64,000 nt of DNA from an uncultured Gammaproteobacteria bacterium. Lineage in GTDB: Bacteria > Patescibacteriota > Patescibacteriia > UBA9934. The notes beneath the pieces were generated by a model. It saw only the letters and a list, made by a program, of their open reading frames with translations, searched no databases and was not told the DNA's origin. The translations under genes and the position numbers were made by a program. The stretch is from the NCBI GenBank assembly GCA_964452565.1, contig CAYVLY010000001.1:451053-515052 (forward strand). The letters run 5' to 3'. This document shows, piece after piece, positions 23,551 to 47,505 of this stretch (positions are counted from its first letter, which is position 1; each line of letters opens with the position of its first letter).

Positions 23551-24783
23551 TCAATGCGACGTGTGGACTTCTGGCTCAAGTGTGAATTTTGTTAGGAATG
23601 TAATACCAAATGCTGCGACTGCTGCAGCAACAAAGGCAACAGATATAGACATATAAATTGTCAAAACTGCAAGCAAGGCTACGATAATAACACGTCCAAA
23701 GGTAAGCGCCATCTCGCGAATCACTGTGAACTCATCAATATAATGGCCTGAGTCAGCTGCCTTCTCGTAAATCATTACGTCTACTGGCGTACGCATAAGA
23801 ATTGATCCAAACGTATGGAAAGTTGAAACAGCAAACACACCAACAACAGAATCAACTAACGCCTTGAAGAACCACCCCAGAGCATACAAATCAACACCCA
23901 CCTTAATCATCTTTCGTTTATGATGATGGTCAATCTGCTTTCCGACTATTAACTGTAAAAGAATATTCACAACAACCAATAATGACGCAAAGATTCCAAT
24001 ATTTAAGTAAGCGCCATCAAACACGATGAACAAGAATATCGGCCAAGCTATATATCCTACAGCACTATCTGCTCCATAAGCCATCATTGAAAGAGTAAGA
24101 TATCTGTAACGCTTCTGAAACATCTTCTTAAACGTTTCGAGGAATCCATACTCATACTGCACATTTGTGCGTGGCAAGAACGACAATGGAATTAGTGATA
24201 GAAGTACAAGGCCAATGCCAACTGCAAATGCTGCCCCATACGAATATGTCGCGATCATGAATCCACCAGCGATCGGTGCTCCAACTCCCACCAACCTTTG
24301 CAAAGCATAGAATATACCAACTTGCTTTCCCCTGTGCTTTTTAGATGAAAACTTTGCAAAGTCAACGTGAAATGGCGCCCAATAAAACGCATTTGTAATT
24401 GCACTGAATGCAATTAGTAACCCTAAAAATGTCCAAGGGTGAAAATCAGGTGCAACATCAAGTAAATAAGCAGTTCCATAAATCGCGATCCAGGAGATCG
24501 TTCCAATAAACATGCTCGCCACTAAGCCTGTGCGTGAAAAAATCTTCGCACCCCAAATGAAAAACGGAATTCTAAATAGGTAATTTGCTGCAAACCACAA
24601 AAGTGTCCACTGCAGATCTAATCCAAAAAACTCGTACAAAAATACTGGGAAGAATATTCCAATAATCTGAGTTGCGCTAAATCCCAAAAGCCGACTTATC
24701 GCAAGCTGAGGTAATGCTCCCAGGTGTCTGACATCAAACTTGTGATGTGTAAGTGGGAATGATTGTTTATGCTGACTCTTCAT
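23551..24783 (-). CDS. MFS-type transporter (12 transmembrane helices)
   Basis: 410 aa, polytopic; the pattern G-x-x-x-D-R/K between transmembrane helices 2 and 3 (RTGLVASMFIG) fits an MFS transporter. Confidence 0.65.
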   Translation of the reverse strand: MKSQHKQSFPLTHHKFDVRHLGALPQLAISRLLGFSATQIIGIFFPVFLYEFFGLDLQWTLLWFAANYLFRIPFFIWGAKIFSRTGLVASMFIGTISWIAIYGTAYLLDVAPDFHPWTFLGLLIAFSAITNAFYWAPFHVDFAKFSSKKHRGKQVGIFYALQRLVGVGAPIAGGFMIATYSYGAAFAVGIGLVLLSLIPLSFLPRTNVQYEYGFLETFKKMFQKRYRYLTLSMMAYGADSAVGYIAWPIFLFIVFDGAYLNIGIFASLLVVVNILLQLIVGKQIDHHHKRKMIKVGVDLYALGWFFKALVDSVVGVFAVSTFHTFGSILMRTPVDVMIYEKAADSGHYIDEFTVIREMALTFGRVIIVALLAVLTIYMSISVAFVAAAVAAFGITFLTKFTLEPEVHTSH

Positions 24784-24865: not shown

Positions 24866-27800
24866 CTAAACAACGAAGTTGATTAGCCTACCTGGAACAT
24901 AAACTACTTTCTTTACATCGTCCTTGATGTGCTTTGTAACATTCTCATCAGCTTTTGCTAGGTCTTCGACTTCATCCTGAATTGCATCTGGCGCTGCCTG
25001 GACCTCACCACGAAGTTTGCCGTTTACTTGAACTGCAATATTTACAAGCTCATCGACCACAAGCTCCTGATCATACTCAGGCCACTCGCCTTCTTCGAGC
25101 ATCTTCTTTTCACCAAGCTGCTCAGCAAGTTCATTTGCAAGATGTGGCGCAAATGGGCACAAAATCTGTAAGAACCTCTGGAATGTATCTTTTGTAATCG
25201 TATCTGATGCTTGGCACTGATTAACAAATGTCATCATCTGCGCAACTGCAGTGTTGAACCTCATGGTTTCAATATCTTCTGTGACCTTTTTGATCGTCTT
25301 ATGAAGTGCACGTGTAACAAATTCTGGCTCCTTATCTCCAGTCAACTCAGCCAATCGAACTACCCTATCCAAGAATCGCCGAACTCCAACTGATCCATTT
25401 GTATTCCATGGCACAGGCTCTTCAAACGGCCCCATGAACATTTCATAAACACGAAGCGTATCAGCACCATACTTTTCTACAATCTCGTCCGGATTTATTA
25501 CATTGCCCTTGGACTTTGACATCTTGTGACCATCCTCAGCCAAGATCAAACCATGCGAAGTACGCTTTTCATATGGCTCGCTAGTTGGAGCTGCGTCAAT
25601 GTCAAACAAAAACTTATTCCAGAATCGTGAATATAAAAGATGTAGTGTTGTATGCTCCATTCCACCGTTATACCAAGTCACTGGTCCCCAATAATTTAAC
25701 GGGTGGCTCATGTAATCTTTCAGGAACTGAACTTTTTCGTCATCCTCCTTGCCTTCACGAGTCTCTGGGAATGTCTCATGCAAAAAATTATAGTGATGCA
25801 GCATGTACTTTGGAGATAGTGTTTGGAATGACTCACCCCAAAGGAACCCACGCTCAGATAACTCTAAATCTGGCTTATGTAAAATCTGTTGCCTAATCTC
25901 AGGTGGCAAACTCTTATCTCGCAGATGAGTGTAGATATCACCTCCAAGGTGATACGCAGGAACCAACTCAACCATCATTCCGTCCTTTTCAATCCTATTC
26001 CATCCTCGATCTTCTTCATGGACCACAAATCCATCACCACGCAGAATCTCAAGTGCCTTATCAAAGTTTTCTCCAAGAATAAAAAGATCAAGATCGTGCA
26101 TGTGACGCCACAACTCCTTATTAAGTCCATTAATCATTAGTGACCCTGACGCCCAGAGCATAATGTTGTGCTCTGCAAGCAGAGCCTTCATATGCTTGAA
26201 CAAATCAAATAGCTTATGATCTAATTCGTCGGGTTGGATTTCAGCTCGCTTCCATTTATTCACGCCAAACATCTCATTACTCTGCGGTGCAGCATAGCGC
26301 ATAAAGTACCAACTTGATCCTGCCCAGTTTGGCATCACATCAGTTTCACGCCGCGCCGGCTTTCCACACTCAGGACAATCAACACTTACCCAATCTTCTA
26401 TGTTCGAAAGTGGACTCTCGCCGGTATCAGTTGGTTCATACTTATCTACTTCAGGAAGTGTAAGCGGCAATTGCTCCTCGCTCATTGGGAACCATCCGTC
26501 ACCATATCGACTCTTACTCTTACAATGCTCACAATGAACCATTGGAATTGGCTCACCCCAATAACGCTGACGAGAAAAAACCCAGTCACGCAACTTGTAC
26601 TGAACCTTTGATGCCCCAATGCCATAATCCTCAAGCCAATCTGTGATCTTTTTCTTTGCGTCTGCTGTTGAGAGGCCATTCAAGAAATCTGAGTTAATCG
26701 CAGTCCCTTCTCCAGAAAAGCAACAATCAGTCTCTTGAGATCCTTCGACTCCCTCTGGTCGCTCAGGATGACGGATTGCGGTATCCGCGACCGTCACTTC
26801 CACGACTTTTAATCCAAACTTCTGAGCAAACTCGTAGTCACGCTCATCGTGTGCCGGAACTGCCATTATTGCTCCAGTTCCATAGCCTGTCATGACATAA
26901 TCTGCGACCCAGATTGGAATCCTTTCATCTGTGAGCGGATTTAGAGCTTGCAATCCCTTAAGCTCAACTCCTGTCTTTTCTTTTGAAGCATCGCCACGCT
27001 CGAAATCTGATTTTGATGATGCATCTTTGACATATTCTCGAACCTCTTTGATATTTTCAATCTTATCTGAGTGCCTCTCAATCATCCCATGCTCTGGAGC
27101 AATTACCATGTAGGTTGCTCCAAACACAGTATCGGGTCGTGTTGTGAAAACTTCCAAATGATTCTTAGCATGCTCTGGACCATACTCTTCCTCAACAATG
27201 TCAGGGAGTGGGAACTTGATCATTGCCCCCTCTGATCTGCCGATCCAGTTCTTTTGCTGCAGTTTGACTGGTTCGATATAATCCAAAAACTTTAAATCTT
27301 TAATCAACCGATCAGCATACTGAGTAATCCGCAACATCCACTGTTCCTTGCTTCGTTTCTCAACTTCCCCACTACAACGTTCACATGCGCCATTTACAAC
27401 CTCCTCATTTGCAAGTCCAATCTTGCAGTTCAAACACCAGTTGATTGCGACCTTATCTTTGTAAGCAAGTCCGTTTTTGAAAAGCTGCAAAAAGATCCAC
27501 TGCGTCCATTTGTAATACTCGGGATCTGTCGTATTGATCTCGCGCGACCAATCAAAACTAAAACCAAGTGACTGAAGTTGTCTTCGAAATGTATCAGTAT
27601 TTTCTTTTGTAACATCTTGCGGCTTACGACCAGTCTTAATGGCATAGTTCTCTGTTGGAAGACCAAACGCATCCCATCCAATCGGATATAAGACATTGCG
27701 ACCCTCCATGCGCTTTTTGCGCGCGATAATGTCTAGCGCTGTGTAGCTCCTGGGATGACCAATGTGCAGTCCGGCACCTGATGGATATGGAAACTCGATC

Positions 27801-27907
27801 AGAAGATAGTACTTCTCAAGAGTTGGATCATCTTTGGCCTCAAACACGCCGGAATCCATCCAGCGCTTTTGCCATTTCTTTTCAATATTGTTGTGATCGT
27901 AAGGCAT
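24866..27907 (-). CDS. leuS: leucyl-tRNA synthetase carrying a roughly 200-aa in-frame insertion of a LinA/ANT(2'')-like nucleotidyltransferase domain (aa 545-745)
   Basis: HIGH motif (PYPSGAGLHIGHPRSY), a CP1 editing domain, GGMEHTTLHLLYSRFW, and KMSKSKGN. The insertion lies between the Zn-knuckle region and GGMEH; see the findings. Confidence 0.95.
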   Translation of the reverse strand: MPYDHNNIEKKWQKRWMDSGVFEAKDDPTLEKYYLLIEFPYPSGAGLHIGHPRSYTALDIIARKKRMEGRNVLYPIGWDAFGLPTENYAIKTGRKPQDVTKENTDTFRRQLQSLGFSFDWSREINTTDPEYYKWTQWIFLQLFKNGLAYKDKVAINWCLNCKIGLANEEVVNGACERCSGEVEKRSKEQWMLRITQYADRLIKDLKFLDYIEPVKLQQKNWIGRSEGAMIKFPLPDIVEEEYGPEHAKNHLEVFTTRPDTVFGATYMVIAPEHGMIERHSDKIENIKEVREYVKDASSKSDFERGDASKEKTGVELKGLQALNPLTDERIPIWVADYVMTGYGTGAIMAVPAHDERDYEFAQKFGLKVVEVTVADTAIRHPERPEGVEGSQETDCCFSGEGTAINSDFLNGLSTADAKKKITDWLEDYGIGASKVQYKLRDWVFSRQRYWGEPIPMVHCEHCKSKSRYGDGWFPMSEEQLPLTLPEVDKYEPTDTGESPLSNIEDWVSVDCPECGKPARRETDVMPNWAGSSWYFMRYAAPQSNEMFGVNKWKRAEIQPDELDHKLFDLFKHMKALLAEHNIMLWASGSLMINGLNKELWRHMHDLDLFILGENFDKALEILRGDGFVVHEEDRGWNRIEKDGMMVELVPAYHLGGDIYTHLRDKSLPPEIRQQILHKPDLELSERGFLWGESFQTLSPKYMLHHYNFLHETFPETREGKEDDEKVQFLKDYMSHPLNYWGPVTWYNGGMEHTTLHLLYSRFWNKFLFDIDAAPTSEPYEKRTSHGLILAEDGHKMSKSKGNVINPDEIVEKYGADTLRVYEMFMGPFEEPVPWNTNGSVGVRRFLDRVVRLAELTGDKEPEFVTRALHKTIKKVTEDIETMRFNTAVAQMMTFVNQCQASDTITKDTFQRFLQILCPFAPHLANELAEQLGEKKMLEEGEWPEYDQELVVDELVNIAVQVNGKLRGEVQAAPDAIQDEVEDLAKADENVTKHIKDDVKKVVYVPGRLINFVV

Positions 27908-28064
27908 AGTGCATCTAGTTTATCGAAATCCGCTGAAAATGGGAAATACATATCAAGGTTAAGCCCCCGAGGTTCAACCTTGGATGCAAATCCTGCCAAA
28001 CAAAGGCTTTGACAAACCGACCTTAGTACGGCAATGTATAGCCATCCCTTTCAAACCCCTGCCC

Positions 28065-28580
28065 ATGGAGCAAAGCATGCAACATGCACAACGACCCAGT
28101 ATCTCAACCATGATCCTCGTGTCGCTCTTCGTGGTGAGCCTCGCAGTCCTTATGAGGCCCAACGACACCGAGGTAATCGAGAACGCTAGTGACGTGATGG
28201 TCGGGCCGACAGAAGAAGAACACGAGTTCGCCCACACGATCGTCGACAACAACTGCGACGGCCTCAACTGCTTCGCGTACATCGCCAGTCCGCAGGACAC
28301 GGACGATGAACTCTACGACGCAGGCTCTGATCGCGGCCGGTTCGTGCGCCTCATCACCCCACAGGGAGATGATCTCGCATTCGACATCCGCTACGGTGAC
28401 ATCTTCGTAGCGATCGACATCCTGCACTGCCGGGTCGACTCGAACTGCGGTGTGAGACCAATGCAATTCAATGAGGGGTTCGGTCTCATCTTCTACGACG
28501 CGCCCCGAGGAGATCACAAGCAGACCATGCACCCAAACGATCTGCGCTTCAGCCTAGCACCCAAAAAGGAGACGCCATGA
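28065..28580 (+). CDS. Hypothetical secreted or membrane-anchored protein in a GC-rich island; the start is uncertain (28065 or 28104) and the protein contains an HEFAH motif
   Basis: An N-terminal hydrophobic segment MILVSLFVVSLAVLM, 6 Cys, and about 60% GC. The track ORF begins at 27984. Confidence 0.45.
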   Translation: MEQSMQHAQRPSISTMILVSLFVVSLAVLMRPNDTEVIENASDVMVGPTEEEHEFAHTIVDNNCDGLNCFAYIASPQDTDDELYDAGSDRGRFVRLITPQGDDLAFDIRYGDIFVAIDILHCRVDSNCGVRPMQFNEGFGLIFYDAPRGDHKQTMHPNDLRFSLAPKKETP

Positions 28581-29002
28581 ACACTCGACACCTCATCCTC
28601 CTGATCATGACCATGCTCTCTGGCTGCTGGTGGGCTCCTTCGGCCCAAGAGGTCGAGCTGATCCGTGCGATCGACGCAGCCGGCTGCGGCTACAACCACA
28701 AGAGATGCAAGATCTACATAGATCGCCGAGAAGAGAGTGATCCTACTGTCCACCTGGAGTACTTCCGCATTGTGAGCGCGGGGTCACTACGGGCAGGAGA
28801 AGATGTCGACAAGACTTTTGAGATAGCAAAGGGCAGGATCTTTCGCGCTCTTGAAGAACTTGACTGCACGAAAGATGGCCACTGTGGGGTCCGGGTATAC
28901 GTCGTGTGCTCGAACATCGTCTACGCCAAGGTTGCTCACCCCAAGAAACAGCCCATCAACATCAACACCGGCATCGATGCTGACATGCTCAAGGAGGAAT
29001 GA
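28577..29002 (+). CDS. Hypothetical lipoprotein (lipobox LSGC) in the same GC-rich island
   Basis: MNTRHLILLIMTMLSGCWW... is a signal peptide ending in a lipobox cysteine. The protein is 141 aa and about 58% GC. Confidence 0.5.
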   Translation: MNTRHLILLIMTMLSGCWWAPSAQEVELIRAIDAAGCGYNHKRCKIYIDRREESDPTVHLEYFRIVSAGSLRAGEDVDKTFEIAKGRIFRALEELDCTKDGHCGVRVYVVCSNIVYAKVAHPKKQPININTGIDADMLKEE

Positions 29003-29004
29003 TC

Positions 29005-29118
29005 ATGCGGAGGATATGGTTCAAGTTCTGGTTCCAGGTCAACTCGAACATGCCATTGATGATCGTCATCGCACTGATCATCGCAGCTGCCTGGCTCCTG
29101 CCCTATGGCAGCCACTAG
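29005..29118 (+). CDS. Possible 37-aa single-transmembrane small protein, MRRIWFKFWFQVNSNMPLMIVIALIIAAAWLLPYGSH
   Basis: An AAGGAGG motif sits 7 nt upstream of the ATG, and the start overlaps the stop of the preceding gene. The ORF is too short for the ORF track. Confidence 0.3.
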   Translation: MRRIWFKFWFQVNSNMPLMIVIALIIAAAWLLPYGSH

Positions 29119-29291
29119 GCGTTCAATATGCCTGTCTCGCCCGCCCGCGTCCCCACCAGGACGCGGCTTCTGCTTTTCACAGAACCCAGACGCCAGACTT
29201 CAGAACCCAGAAAGGATCTTATCTGTGTTCTGTGTTCTGCCCAAGCACAAGACCCCGACGCGCGGGACGGGGTCGATAGACGGTTGAAACG

Positions 29292-31148
29292 TTACTGAAC
29301 ATTGACCCTGTGGGGTCGCGGTCCGGATCCAGAGGAGAACTTGGAGCCTCCTGGATCCTGCGGCGTTGCTGTGATTCGGTAGTCGATGCCGTTGGAGAAC
29401 GTATCATCCCACGATATCGTAGCCTGGTAGGCGCCACCACGCGTGGCAAGCGGTTTGGACTTGTATGCACCCGAGTTTGTCGGACGATAGTAGACCACCA
29501 CCTTGTAGCTGCCTTCTGGGTGCACGCGCGCCTTGACCATGAAATCCTGGCCGATAGTGAGCGAACTCACTGGCACGTGCTGGATCCCAGGCTCGATGGT
29601 TGGCTCAGGCTCAGGTGCGGCGACCATAGCCTCAGGTTCAGGTTCGACCGTCACCTCGGGCTCGATCAGCACTTCTGGCTCAGGGATCTCAATGACTGGC
29701 TCAGGCTCAGGGGCCTTGGCAACCGAATCAGGTTCGATCGGATCGGGCACCGGAACGACTTCAGGCTCAGGCTCGATCACCACTTCAGGTTCGATCTGTA
29801 CCAATGCTTCGAGCTCGACAACCTTGGCTGCCTCAGGGCTGGGACCATGGGTTTCGATCTGTACCTCAGGCTCGGGCTCGGGAACTACGATCGGTTCTGG
29901 GTCCGACATGCCGGCCAGTTCGACCACAGGCTCCGATGCAGTAGCCTCTGGCGTCGCATCACCATCACCGAAGAGGACCATCCCCGCAACACAGAGCAAG
30001 ACCACTAGCCCAATGATTGCCACTGGGATGGGCCACCTGCTCCTGCGAGGTGTCGGTACATCGTCAGACAGACTATCGCCGGGCAGAACCGTGTGACCAC
30101 CTGGATCAAACGTTGTGCCAGCACTTCGGAGACCATCCAGATCTTGATCACCACTGACTGCATGCCCGTAACGTTCCTCAGGAACTTCGAGCTCCTCAGG
30201 AACCATTGTGCCGCCAGGCGGGACGACGCTCTGTGGCTCAGCCTCTACGGCCTCAGGCACACTAGCAAGCGCTTCATCAGGCTCGGACTCTGGTTCGACC
30301 ACCACCTCAGGTTCGGGCGGATCGTCAGGAAGCTCGTCGTAGATCGCACGAAGCGCATCGATCATCTCTTGCGCGCTCTGAAAGCGATCTTTGCGATTGT
30401 ACTTCGTTGCTTGCTCGATAAGCCCACGGAACACCTCAGGCACACTATTGAGCATATCAAGATCAAGCTCGCACGATTGAAGGTCTGGAGGAACTTCTAC
30501 CCCAACCAGCATGCAGTACAGCGTTGCGCCAACAGCGAAGATGTCAGAACGCAGATCTACGGAAGATCCATCACTCTTCTGCTCTGGCGACATGAAGCCA
30601 AACGTTCCCATCGGGGTACCGATCTTGGTAAGGCCTGTATCTTCGAGCTCCATCTGAACGATGCCGAAGTCAGTGACCTTCACCGCACCATCCTCAGTGA
30701 AAAGGATGTTCGCGGGCTTAATGTCACGGTGTACCATACCACGACCATGTGCGAGAGACAGTGCTCTGAGAACTGCAATACACACGCTAGCAGACCACTT
30801 CTGGCCTAGCGAACCGCGTTGATGAATCCTGTTAAGCAACGAGCCACCGGTGATGAATTCCATAACAATGAACTGCTTATCGCCACCATCACCATTACCG
30901 AATACGTCGTAGACAGATACGATGTGGTGGTGCCTAAGCCTTGCCATCGCCTTAGCTTCACGTACAAATCGCTCGCGAATCATCGGCCTATGAGACAGAT
31001 TGGGCAGCAACATCTTGATAGCAACTTCTGCATCCAGAGCGGTATTAGTCGCCCTGTACACCACTGCCATACCCCCCTCACCAATGATGGAGCCCAACTC
31101 ATACTTACCATCCGCAAGGAAGCGGTCTGGCGTTTTTTTCGAAGTCAT
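29292..31148 (-). CDS. Hanks-type Ser/Thr protein kinase with one transmembrane helix, a Pro/Glu-rich (PEPE repeat) extracytoplasmic linker and a roughly 90-aa C-terminal domain
   Basis: Kinase subdomains are present: GEGGMAVVYRA, VAIK, HRDIKPANIL, DFG and SPEQ. The transmembrane helix is WPIPVAIIGLVVLLCVAGMVLFG. The gene is about 62% GC, and AAGGAG sits 6 nt before the ATG. Confidence 0.85.
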   Translation of the reverse strand: MTSKKTPDRFLADGKYELGSIIGEGGMAVVYRATNTALDAEVAIKMLLPNLSHRPMIRERFVREAKAMARLRHHHIVSVYDVFGNGDGGDKQFIVMEFITGGSLLNRIHQRGSLGQKWSASVCIAVLRALSLAHGRGMVHRDIKPANILFTEDGAVKVTDFGIVQMELEDTGLTKIGTPMGTFGFMSPEQKSDGSSVDLRSDIFAVGATLYCMLVGVEVPPDLQSCELDLDMLNSVPEVFRGLIEQATKYNRKDRFQSAQEMIDALRAIYDELPDDPPEPEVVVEPESEPDEALASVPEAVEAEPQSVVPPGGTMVPEELEVPEERYGHAVSGDQDLDGLRSAGTTFDPGGHTVLPGDSLSDDVPTPRRSRWPIPVAIIGLVVLLCVAGMVLFGDGDATPEATASEPVVELAGMSDPEPIVVPEPEPEVQIETHGPSPEAAKVVELEALVQIEPEVVIEPEPEVVPVPDPIEPDSVAKAPEPEPVIEIPEPEVLIEPEVTVEPEPEAMVAAPEPEPTIEPGIQHVPVSSLTIGQDFMVKARVHPEGSYKVVVYYRPTNSGAYKSKPLATRGGAYQATISWDDTFSNGIDYRITATPQDPGGSKFSSGSGPRPHRVNVQ

Positions 31149-47350: not shown

Positions 47351-47427
47351 TGGTACACCGGGTGGGACTCGAACCCACGACCCACTGATTAAGAGTCAGT
47401 TGCTCTAACCAACTGAGCTACCGGTGC
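47351..47427 (-). tRNA. tRNA-Lys (anticodon CTT)
   Basis: Manual fold: acceptor GCACCGG/CCGGTGT, D-stem GCTC/GAGC, anticodon stem ACTGA/TCAGT with loop CTCTTAA, T-arm GTGGG-TTCGAGT-CCCAC, discriminator A, and an encoded CCA. Confidence 0.85.
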
Positions 47428-47428
47428 C

Positions 47429-47505
47429 TGGCGCGGCGTGAGGGATTCGAACCCCCGACCTACTGGTCCGAAGCCAGTCGCTCTATCCAGCTGAGCTAAC
47501 GCCGC
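47429..47505 (-). tRNA. tRNA-Arg (anticodon TCG)
   Basis: Manual fold: acceptor GCGGCGT/ACGCCGC, D-stem GCTC/GAGC, anticodon stem ACTGG/CCAGT with loop CTTCGGA, T-arm GGGGG-TTCGAAT-CCCTC, and an encoded CCA. It is separated from tRNA-Lys by 1 nt. Confidence 0.85.

Follow-up and report, generated by a model that had tools for sequence, protein, structure and literature searches.

Aminoacyl-tRNA synthetases are among the best-catalogued enzymes, and the domain plan of the bacterial leucyl-tRNA synthetase (LeuRS), with its CP1, CP2, Zn2, leucine-specific (LS), anticodon-binding and C-terminal domains, is held as settled. The stretch of 64,000 nucleotides analysed here (the window), from the genome of an ultra-small Patescibacteria bacterium related to Uhrbacteria, encodes a LeuRS that is longer than this plan accounts for. 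What are the additional residues within its catalytic domain, and what might they do? The initial annotation had read them as a LinA/ANT(2'')-like nucleotidyltransferase (NTase) domain of the pol-beta type.

The gene product is recognisably a bacterial-type, housekeeping LeuRS. In a profile search, the whole protein matched TIGR00396 leuS_bact at 964.7 bits (cutoff 548.4), the match being split into two stretches with the insert at the break. Pfam matches to tRNA-synt_1, tRNA-synt_1_2 and Anticodon_1 were obtained (191 bits for PF13603 and 66 bits for PF08264), and all LeuRS signatures, namely HIGH, KMSKS, the CP1 editing motifs and the anticodon-binding domain, were present. The features of the gene are as follows, with the short motifs placed by their motif coordinates.

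24866..27907, minus strand: complete LeuRS gene, 1013 aa plus stop (ORF list, TIGR00396, Pfam and PDB alignment)
26276..27907, minus strand: LeuRS body N-terminal to the insert, aa 1-544 (alignment to Thermus thermophilus LeuRS 4-518)
27755..27766, minus strand: HIGH, aa 48-51
aa 255-260: editing-domain motif TTRPDT
aa 352-357: editing-domain motif AHDERD
25703..26275, minus strand: ANT(2'')/Lnu(A)-like nucleotidyltransferase insert, aa 545-735 (191 residues)
25706..26230, minus strand: ordered fold inside the insert, about aa 560-734
24869..25702, minus strand: LeuRS body C-terminal to the insert, aa 736-1013 (T. thermophilus LeuRS 525-593 and 637-876; Pfam Anticodon_1)
25511..25525, minus strand: KMSKS, aa 795-799

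The N-terminal part of the body holds the first Rossmann-fold half, the CP1 editing domain and the zinc-binding module, with SSWYFMRY (aa 531-538) at its end. The C-terminal part holds GGMEH (aa 748-752), KMSKS, the anticodon-binding domain and the C-terminal domain; in the alignment to T. thermophilus LeuRS, the leucine-specific domain was absent from it. When aligned to the T. thermophilus structure (1h3n), residues 3-545 of the window protein corresponded to 4-518 and residues 736-804 to 525-593, and about 190 window residues stand where T. thermophilus LeuRS has about 6. The insertion site is a surface loop leading from the zinc-binding CP module to the GGxEH strand of the second Rossmann-fold half. 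Among 89 other LeuRS sequences reaching across both flanking motifs, the spacing from SSWYxRY to GGxEH was exactly 25 residues in 86 and 196-206 in the other three, all of which bear the insert, while it is 209 in the window LeuRS. The earlier description of a 1013-aa LeuRS with extra residues in frame is borne out, with 191 residues standing against a short linker that is otherwise fixed. The range first given for the insert, 25675..26275, was correct except that it took in about 9 residues of the LeuRS body as well.

LeuRS tolerates idiosyncratic insertions, with CP1, CP2, Zn2 and LS domains all being known (PMC9424281), and this would favour an ordinary lineage-specific element, such as a leucine-specific or CP extension; the extra residues might otherwise come from faulty assembly or represent an intein-like element. 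We give practically no credence to any of these, and they are already refuted by the present results. The 25-residue linker is fixed in nearly all other LeuRS, and the insert adopts an NTase fold in which catalytic residues are present (see below). The same protein was found in an independent Logan assembly and insert-bearing orthologues were present in several further assemblies; this recurrence across independent assemblies and samples rules out an assembly artefact. As for an intein, the only non-NTase Pfam match to the insert was UBM (E 0.072), and nothing intein-like was seen.

Modelled in isolation with AF2 (pLDDT 85.5), the insert folds autonomously. The model matched solved pol-beta members with an alpha-beta-alpha-beta-alpha-beta core topology, and both of its lobes matched structures of the PF10706 family, that is the ANT(2'')/Lnu(A) family; its nearest fold matches, both lobes included, are small-molecule O-nucleotidyltransferases. 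Comparison with ANT(2'')-Ia by hhalign gave 89% probability (E 2.4e-6) with the catalytic residues in register. The profile search that had been suggested for the insert did retrieve NTase families, although the window insert itself stayed below the Pfam gathering scores: it reached 16.5-16.7 bits (E ~0.009) against PF10706, where 21 is needed, and 26.4-26.6 bits (E 6e-6) against PF14907 (NTP_transf_5), where 31.2 is needed. The PF10706 score was exceeded by two homologous inserts (P0122, 24.9 bits; P0125, 25.3 bits) and the model was matched by 6 of 7 family members; for PF14907 the lowest E among family members was 3.5e-7. The Lnu(P) model was matched by 7 of 9 members and the NCBIfam ANT_2pp_Ia model by one of 9 (E 0.19). 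When the PDB was searched directly by sequence, the insert found sub-significant matches only. The weak profile matches (PF14907, PF10706 and Lnu(P/D/C/A)) all point to one superfamily, and the profiles, hhalign and the fold, all the tests that were run, agreed with an NTase of the kind initially proposed. Together they support a complete two-lobed NTase belonging with ANT(2'')-Ia and Lnu(A), whose fold serves other bacteria in inactivating aminoglycosides and lincosamides.

The predicted active site is made up of the following elements.

26141..26155, minus strand: WASGS, aa 585-589, in which G588-S589 forms the G[GS] element of the pol-beta NTase signature and equals Gly27-Gly28 of ANT(2'')-Ia
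26087..26107, minus strand: RHMHDLD, aa 601-607, in hhalign register with ANT(2'')-Ia
25955..25972, minus strand: VELVPA strand, aa 646-651, in which E647 equals Asp86 of ANT(2'')-Ia
25781..25828, minus strand: motif FQTLSPKYMLHHYNFL of the C-terminal lobe, aa 694-709, which aligns with GRPVRCNSWEAIIWDY in ANT(2'')-Ia

Both the insert sequence quoted at the outset and its G-S...D-x-D signature are thus present in the protein, with the spacing of the pol-beta signature: G588-S589, 15 residues, D605-L-D607 and then E647. In the hhalign register, R601, D605 and D607 correspond to Arg40, Asp44 and Asp46 of ANT(2'')-Ia, in which the roles of Arg40, Asp44, Asp46 and Asp86 are documented (PMC4313920). 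D605 and D607 are therefore predicted Mg2+ ligands, R601 is a candidate triphosphate contact, and E647 is the third carboxylate and a candidate catalytic base. As judged from the alignment, the retained G-S, Arg, D-x-D and Glu are the residues that serve NTP-Mg2+ binding and acceptor-hydroxyl activation in ANT(2'')-Ia. The G-S of WASGS was invariant in every family member save P0123, and E647 in all nine. With one member left out, G588, S589, D605, D607 and E647 accounted for 5 of only 14 positions that were invariant at identities down to 24%; the metal- and NTP-binding residues were invariant in 8 of 9 members (24-81% identity). The motif FQTLSPKYMLHHYNFL is common to the substrate-cleft lobe of the ANT(2'')/Lnu(A) family, and its F694, Y706 and L709 were invariant or almost so.

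The insert nevertheless differs from each known system with which it was compared. The aminoglycoside 2''-O-adenylyltransferase ANT(2'')-Ia (AadB; PDB 4xje, 4wqk and 5kqj) shares only about 19-21% identity with it, and has Asp86 and Asp32 where the insert has E647 and N593, respectively; it is a resistance protein of 177 aa that stands alone and is carried by mobile elements, whereas the insert lies inside an essential chromosomal LeuRS. Against the models of Lnu(A)/LinA (PDB 4fo1 and 4wh5) and Lnu(C/D/P) the insert scored 15-19 bits, with cutoffs of 300-325, and none of the NCBIfam exception models for Lnu(A/C/D/P) and ANT(2'')-Ia gave more than about 19 bits. As these scores are far below the curated cutoffs, the insert falls outside every named resistance-allele family; by sequence, it is no lincosamide-resistance allele, and it is embedded whereas Lnu(A)/LinA is free-standing. 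TM1012 (PDB 2ewr) and the proteins of PF10706 (Aminoglyc_resit) and PF14907 are likewise free-standing, unlike the insert, and their function is uncharacterised. PADLOC gave no match for the insert.

Among 1.84 billion representative proteins, every relative of the insert was itself a LeuRS from Patescibacteria that has the domain in the corresponding place, and no free-standing protein in this set matched the insert at E 1e-3. Word-index searches with the insert alone or its profile retrieved only P0001, as such an index hardly sees the family. The alignment with related LeuRS that had been proposed at the outset thus places the insert at one site in several lineages, and the domain has been inherited together with LeuRS across these lineages. 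Purifying selection on the insert is as strong as on the LeuRS body: dN/dS between L006 and L008 was 0.080 for the insert and 0.094 for the body, and pN/pS between the window and L003 was 0.125/0.826 and 0.107/0.754, respectively. GC3 was 0.44 in the insert and 0.41 in the LeuRS body. A recent foreign insertion was ruled out by this host-like composition together with the selection data, in keeping with the initial annotation, which had described the insert as host-like and of no recent arrival. Its guess that the DNA comes from Patescibacteria was likewise right.

In the P0123/L011 lineage the motif has been lost (GS to GN and DxD to ISL) while the domain was retained. This degenerate copy is basic (pI 8.8), and the same LeuRS holds a second paralogous domain elsewhere in the protein with an intact GT...DVD motif, as well as a Ser_hydrolase insert. 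A Ham1-like insert has been added to the LeuRS of another lineage. The pI of motif-intact inserts was about 5.1-6.9 (8.0 for the N-truncated P0001 fragment), compared with 4.5 for ANT(2'')-Ia and 5.0 for Lnu(A). Downstream of the window LeuRS lies an MFS transporter, which is kept only in the closest relative, L003; this position is taken by a DedA-like gene in L006 and directly by ComEC in L009 and L011. When LeuRS neighbours were compared across the relatives, no conserved gene hinting at a substrate was found.

We favour, with slightly better than even confidence, an active Mg-dependent NMP transferase that acts on a small molecule with LeuRS as its carrier. An NTP would be bound with two Mg2+ held by D605, D607 and E647, and its NMP would be passed to a hydroxyl group of an acceptor lying in the cleft between the two lobes. 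The acceptor would most likely be a small molecule, probably amine-bearing, for example an antibiotic or an aminoacyl-adenylate-like inhibitor directed against translation or LeuRS, or another metabolite. LeuRS would then be a constitutively expressed carrier and possibly also the protected target. Three pointers lead to a small-molecule acceptor: the nature of the closest folds, with both lobes present; the pI of motif-intact inserts relative to ANT(2'')-Ia and Lnu(A); and the small-molecule-type enzymes (Ham1-like and Ser_hydrolase) in sister LeuRSs. Against it stand the scores of the window insert under the PF10706 and PF14907 gathering thresholds, the outcome of the neighbour comparison, in which no conserved gene hinted at a substrate, and the persistence of the P0123 domain without catalytic residues. 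Nor is any natural product aimed at LeuRS known to us to be inactivated through nucleotidylation, and the literature yielded no such case.

The same persistence, in a basic domain with GN and ISL, favours a structural pseudoenzyme, co-opted for binding tRNA or a partner, for oligomerisation or for LeuRS folding, with the motif kept by structural constraint only, and purifying selection alone does not prove catalysis. We consider this unlikely, as the metal- and NTP-binding residues are otherwise invariant and the sole degenerate case is accompanied by an intact second copy, which suggests that the chemistry is being retained. By analogy with MenT toxins and CCA-adding enzymes, the NTase might instead act on RNA, adding a nucleotide to the 3' end or another hydroxyl of LeuRS-bound tRNA-Leu in end repair or regulation. 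This is quite improbable in our judgement. The tRNA-extending toxins MenT1 and MenT3 (PDB 8an4 and 6j7n) gave a weaker fold match and belong to another family (DUF1814), MenT/AbiEii (DUF1814) models gave no sequence match to the insert, and MenT1 and MenT3 are toxins with antitoxins whereas the insert is a synthetase domain. Protein-AMPylating NTases of the pol-beta fold exist, e.g. the MntA and GlnE classes, and a domain permanently tethered to LeuRS could in the same manner act as a regulatory switch by nucleotidylating either its own LeuRS or a partner protein. Very little weight is given to this explanation, since the top fold matches showed no specific similarity to the MntA and GlnE classes and no conserved candidate acceptor residue was found.

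A broader reading, which we regard as conceivable though doubtful, is that LeuRS of Patescibacteria is a platform for working accessory enzymes, with the NTase in the window protein and a Ham1-like NTP pyrophosphatase or a serine hydrolase in sister lineages, and that the NTase acts in cis on a LeuRS ligand, either neutralising a leucyl-adenylate-like or other LeuRS-directed inhibitor at its target by nucleotidylation or modifying the acceptor end of tRNA-Leu. The structure prediction that had been suggested does present the insert as a discrete fold, but the full-length AF2 model was poor (pTM 0.41, pLDDT 69 in the Rossmann core and <50 in both linkers), owing to an alignment that is shallow in the N-terminal half, and so does not show how the NTase cleft faces the synthetic site, the editing site or the tRNA.

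There are precedents for joining a housekeeping synthetase to a small-molecule-modifying enzyme, although the added enzymes are of other classes: an IleRS with a GNAT domain (NCBIfam NF040702, going by the model name) and the MetRS of Mycoplasma penetrans, which carries an aminotransferase domain (PMC7694997). In this MetRS the domain is appended at the N-terminus, whereas here the NTase lies within the catalytic domain, and one of the two precedents comes from a reduced genome. No description of an NTase-in-LeuRS architecture was found in the literature on LeuRS or other aminoacyl-tRNA synthetases with NTases, on Patescibacteria or on PF10706.

An intact antibiotic-type NTase in the LeuRS catalytic domain, conserved across divergent Patescibacteria by strong selection, points to a so far unrecognised activity linked with leucine charging in bacteria whose genomes are minimal; the two copies in one lineage and the Ham1-like and serine-hydrolase inserts in others also count toward it. 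Should a translation-directed compound be inactivated, the drug target would itself contain the resistance function, and if tRNA were acted on, there would be a new layer of tRNA-end control. If LeuRS is indeed a platform on which the NTase acts in cis, no earlier aminoacyl-tRNA synthetase would have had a nucleotidylating activity of its own.

Insert-bearing LeuRSs are publicly annotated as "leucine--tRNA ligase", "class I tRNA ligase family protein" or "hypothetical protein". As a practical warning, these labels give no sign of the extra NTase domain.

The leucyl-tRNA synthetase (LeuRS) gene and the segment inserted in it were located in the window as follows:

24866..27907, (-): LeuRS gene, a single uninterrupted ORF of 1013 aa
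25703..26275, (-): insert, aa 545-735 of LeuRS

The protein is a bacterial-type LeuRS (964.7 bits on TIGR00396, cutoff 548.4) with Pfam matches to the class I catalytic, LeuRS editing and anticodon-binding domains, and its signatures are intact: HIGH (aa 48-51), KMSKS (aa 795-799) and TTRPDT and AHDERD of the editing site. As its neighbours are core housekeeping genes (EF-Tu, EF-G, IF-2, GyrA, FtsH, RNase Y, S1, MurA and a class II aminoacyl-tRNA synthetase, aaRS), the region is core chromosomal and the gene most likely encodes the working LeuRS of the cell. Both an independent Logan assembly and a 709-kb NCBI contig encode an identical protein.

In the alignment with T. thermophilus LeuRS (1h3n), residues 3-545 correspond to 4-518 and residues 736-804 to 525-593; thus, about 190 residues stand in place of about 6 in the reference. 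The spacing between SSWYxRY and GGxEH was exactly 25 residues in 86 of the 89 retrieved LeuRS sequences covering both flanking motifs, and 209 in the window protein. Both comparisons confirmed the in-frame extra segment proposed in the initial annotation, although the range assigned to it was about 9 residues too long C-terminally. The host-like composition claimed for it also held (GC 0.426 vs 0.445 and GC3 0.44 vs 0.41, insert vs rest of the gene). The insert is placed just ahead of the strand and helix bearing GGMEH...LHLLY in the catalytic domain.

Searched alone, the window insert matched PF14907 NTP_transf_5 (E 6e-6, 26.4 bits, cutoff 31.2), PF10706 Aminoglyc_resit (E 0.0095), and Lnu(P) and Lnu(D) (E 0.002-0.013); each of these profile matches is weak, yet at the sequence level all point in one direction. 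Within the insert family, PF10706 was matched by 6/7 members, PF14907 by 5/7 and Lnu(P) by 7/9, with weaker matches to Lnu(D), Lnu(C), Lnu(AN2), Lnu(E), Lnu(A) and ANT(2'')-Ia. The homologous inserts of two relatives, P0122 (24.9 bits) and P0125 (25.3 bits), exceeded the PF10706 gathering score of 21. Among PDB sequences, the family profile matched only ANT(2'')-Ia, an aminoglycoside nucleotidyltransferase (NTase), and TM1012. Hhalign, with reference sequences identical to the PDB chains, aligned the family with ANT(2'')-Ia (probability 89%, E 2.4e-6, 126 columns) and with the lincosamide NTase Lnu(A) (80.5%). The converging matches support the LinA/ANT(2'')-like identity suggested earlier.

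AF2 modelling of the insert from a six-sequence alignment predicted a confident stand-alone domain (pLDDT 85.5, pTM 0.84), in which a helical lobe follows the alpha-beta-alpha-beta-alpha-beta NTase core, and Foldseek agreed with the NTase fold. The insert was again confident in the full-length LeuRS prediction (pLDDT roughly 65-96, mostly >75), between two linkers <50; therefore, the NTase domain is, in the model, a discrete lobe. The hhalign register paired the following residues of LeuRS and ANT(2'')-Ia:

G588-S589: Gly27-Gly28
R601: Arg40
D605: Asp44
D607: Asp46
E647: Asp86

In ANT(2'')-Ia, two Mg2+ ions are held by Asp44, Asp46 and Asp86, and Asp86 was proposed as catalytic base; the D44A and D86A mutants lack activity, and stabilisation of the triphosphate was proposed for Arg40 and His42 (PMC4313920). 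The insert family (n=9, identity down to 24%) has 14 invariant positions with one member left out, including G588, S589, D605, D607 and E647, and E647 is invariant in 9/9. LeuRS thus carries a complete, conserved ANT(2'')/Lnu(A)-type NTase with its catalytic residues kept, tethered to the catalytic domain by two flexible linkers.

A phmmer scan of the insert against all 1.84 billion representative proteins (E of 1e-3 or better) gave five matches, of which four were genuine (P0121, P0122, P0123 and P0125, 54-32% identity), all being LeuRS proteins with the NTase domain at the identical site; no free-standing relative was found at this threshold. The fifth, a low-complexity repeat protein with seven short matched stretches, was rejected. 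One close relative was obtained from GTDB species representatives (L003, a Candidatus Uhrbacteria MAG; insert identity 81%). Metagenomes, Hainich groundwater 0.1-um fractions among them, provided five further loci, each a LeuRS ORF that carries the insert. The sources are named Candidatus Uhrbacteria or "Patescibacteria group bacterium", and the taxonomic range seen so far is narrow. The gene order LeuRS-ComEC-metallo-beta-lactamase is common to the window, L003 and two distant loci (L009 and L011), and insert and body (LeuRS outside the insert) identities run parallel (81/83%, 54/65%, 88/87%). The simplest explanation of this pattern is an old insertion passed down with the LeuRS gene. Between the L006 and L008 orthologues, the insert and the body gave dN/dS values of 0.080 and 0.094, respectively; between the window and L003, whose synonymous sites are saturated, their pN/pS was 0.125/0.826 and 0.107/0.754. 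By these ratios, the insert is under purifying selection equal to that on the body.

Further inserted domains were detected in two sister LeuRSs. L011:178-4350 (GCA_018818855.1, JAHIRI010000012.1) is one 1390-aa LeuRS ORF with three of them; of this ORF, the gene caller retained no more than the final 493 residues (NCBI label 'class I tRNA ligase family protein'; the full protein is at ENA). P0125 (L010:4001-7672, GAB4141874.1) is a 1223-aa Patescibacteria LeuRS annotated as 'hypothetical protein', in which the NTase insert is intact besides a Ham1-like domain.

L011, about aa 257-347: second NTase-like domain in the first hairpin of the CP1 editing domain, GT...DVD intact, PF10706 23.0 bits
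L011, aa 655-826: Ser_hydrolase domain PF06821 in the zinc-module region, 59-64 bits
L011, canonical site: third inserted domain, NTase-like with degenerate motif
P0125, aa 244-349: Ham1-like NTP-pyrophosphatase domain PF01725, 33 bits, in the CP1 hairpin at the site where L011 has its second NTase

The second L011 copy aligned with the insert family by hhalign (94.7%, E 6e-8, 142 columns), and the alignment takes in the C-terminal tail, R-x-G-K-x-D...FL. An ENA fragment, P0003, joins a pyruvate-formate-lyase-like N-terminus (PF02901, 42 bits) to a LeuRS segment beginning YWLPVDWYNGGMEH, exactly at the NTase insertion site. The join probably reflects a chimeric assembly or gene call, but could be another insertion at a LeuRS hot spot.

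The NTase domain would bind an NTP with two Mg2+ ions and, between its lobes, an acceptor, one hydroxyl of which would receive the NMP. By analogy, a small-molecule acceptor is favoured, since two-lobed O-nucleotidyltransferases of small molecules have the most similar folds, the sister inserted domains are also of small-molecule or nucleotide "house-cleaning" types, and motif-intact inserts have a pI of about 5.1-6.9, beside 4.5 for ANT(2'')-Ia and 5.0 for Lnu(A) (the computed value is 8.0 for P0001, an N-truncated fragment, and 8.8 for the degenerate P0123 copy). A plausible role would be to neutralise a compound directed at LeuRS or translation. Alternatively, the domain may act on the tRNA-Leu 3' end, its fold being common to MenT and CCA-adding enzymes; however, it is acidic, PADLOC gave no match, CCA is encoded in the tRNA genes of the window, and canonical CCA-adding enzymes are reported for Patescibacteria. 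LeuRS might also nucleotidylate itself via this domain. A purely structural role could be read from P0123, the L011 protein, where GN and ISL replace GS and DxD in the canonical-site insert, although motif invariance speaks against such a role. The decayed copy in P0123 is accompanied by an intact paralogue, and this single case fits selection for chemistry rather than bulk.

In the literature, we found neither a LeuRS nor any other aaRS described as having an ANT/Lnu-type NTase inserted in it, and public records name the insert-bearing proteins plain LeuRS, class I tRNA ligase family protein or hypothetical protein, in line with the initial view of an undescribed architecture. The LeuRS and NTase parts are each of a known kind; what is new is that they are combined and that the combination is conserved. 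Loose precedents of an aaRS bearing another enzyme domain are IleRS with a GNAT domain (NCBIfam NF040702) and, according to PMC7694997, M. penetrans MetRS with an aminotransferase domain.

An MFS transporter gene lies directly downstream of LeuRS in the window (23551..24783) and in L003 (L003:6925-8148). In distant insert-bearing loci it is absent there (L006 has a DedA-like gene; L009 and L011 continue straight to ComEC), and therefore no reliable functional link with the NTase domain can be drawn. Between LeuRS and the glutamate dehydrogenase gene is an island of about 3 kb (27984..31148; GC 0.55-0.60 vs 0.42-0.45 on either side), containing a Ser/Thr protein kinase of 618 aa, Pro/Glu-rich in its tail, and two small ORFs that matched nothing in Pfam; in the syntenic L003 locus, a single small ORF occupies this position. 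As the LeuRS-proximal edge recurs on a Logan contig (L002), the island appears to be genuinely acquired, not chimeric. The L006 (L006:2387-5488) and L008 (L008:2306-5422) orthologues carry extra Ser/Arg/Lys-rich, low-complexity segments of about 20-35 residues in the anticodon-binding region, which the window LeuRS lacks. At 47351..47505 (-), tRNA-Arg(TCG) and tRNA-Lys(CTT) lie 1 nt apart, both with encoded 3' CCA.
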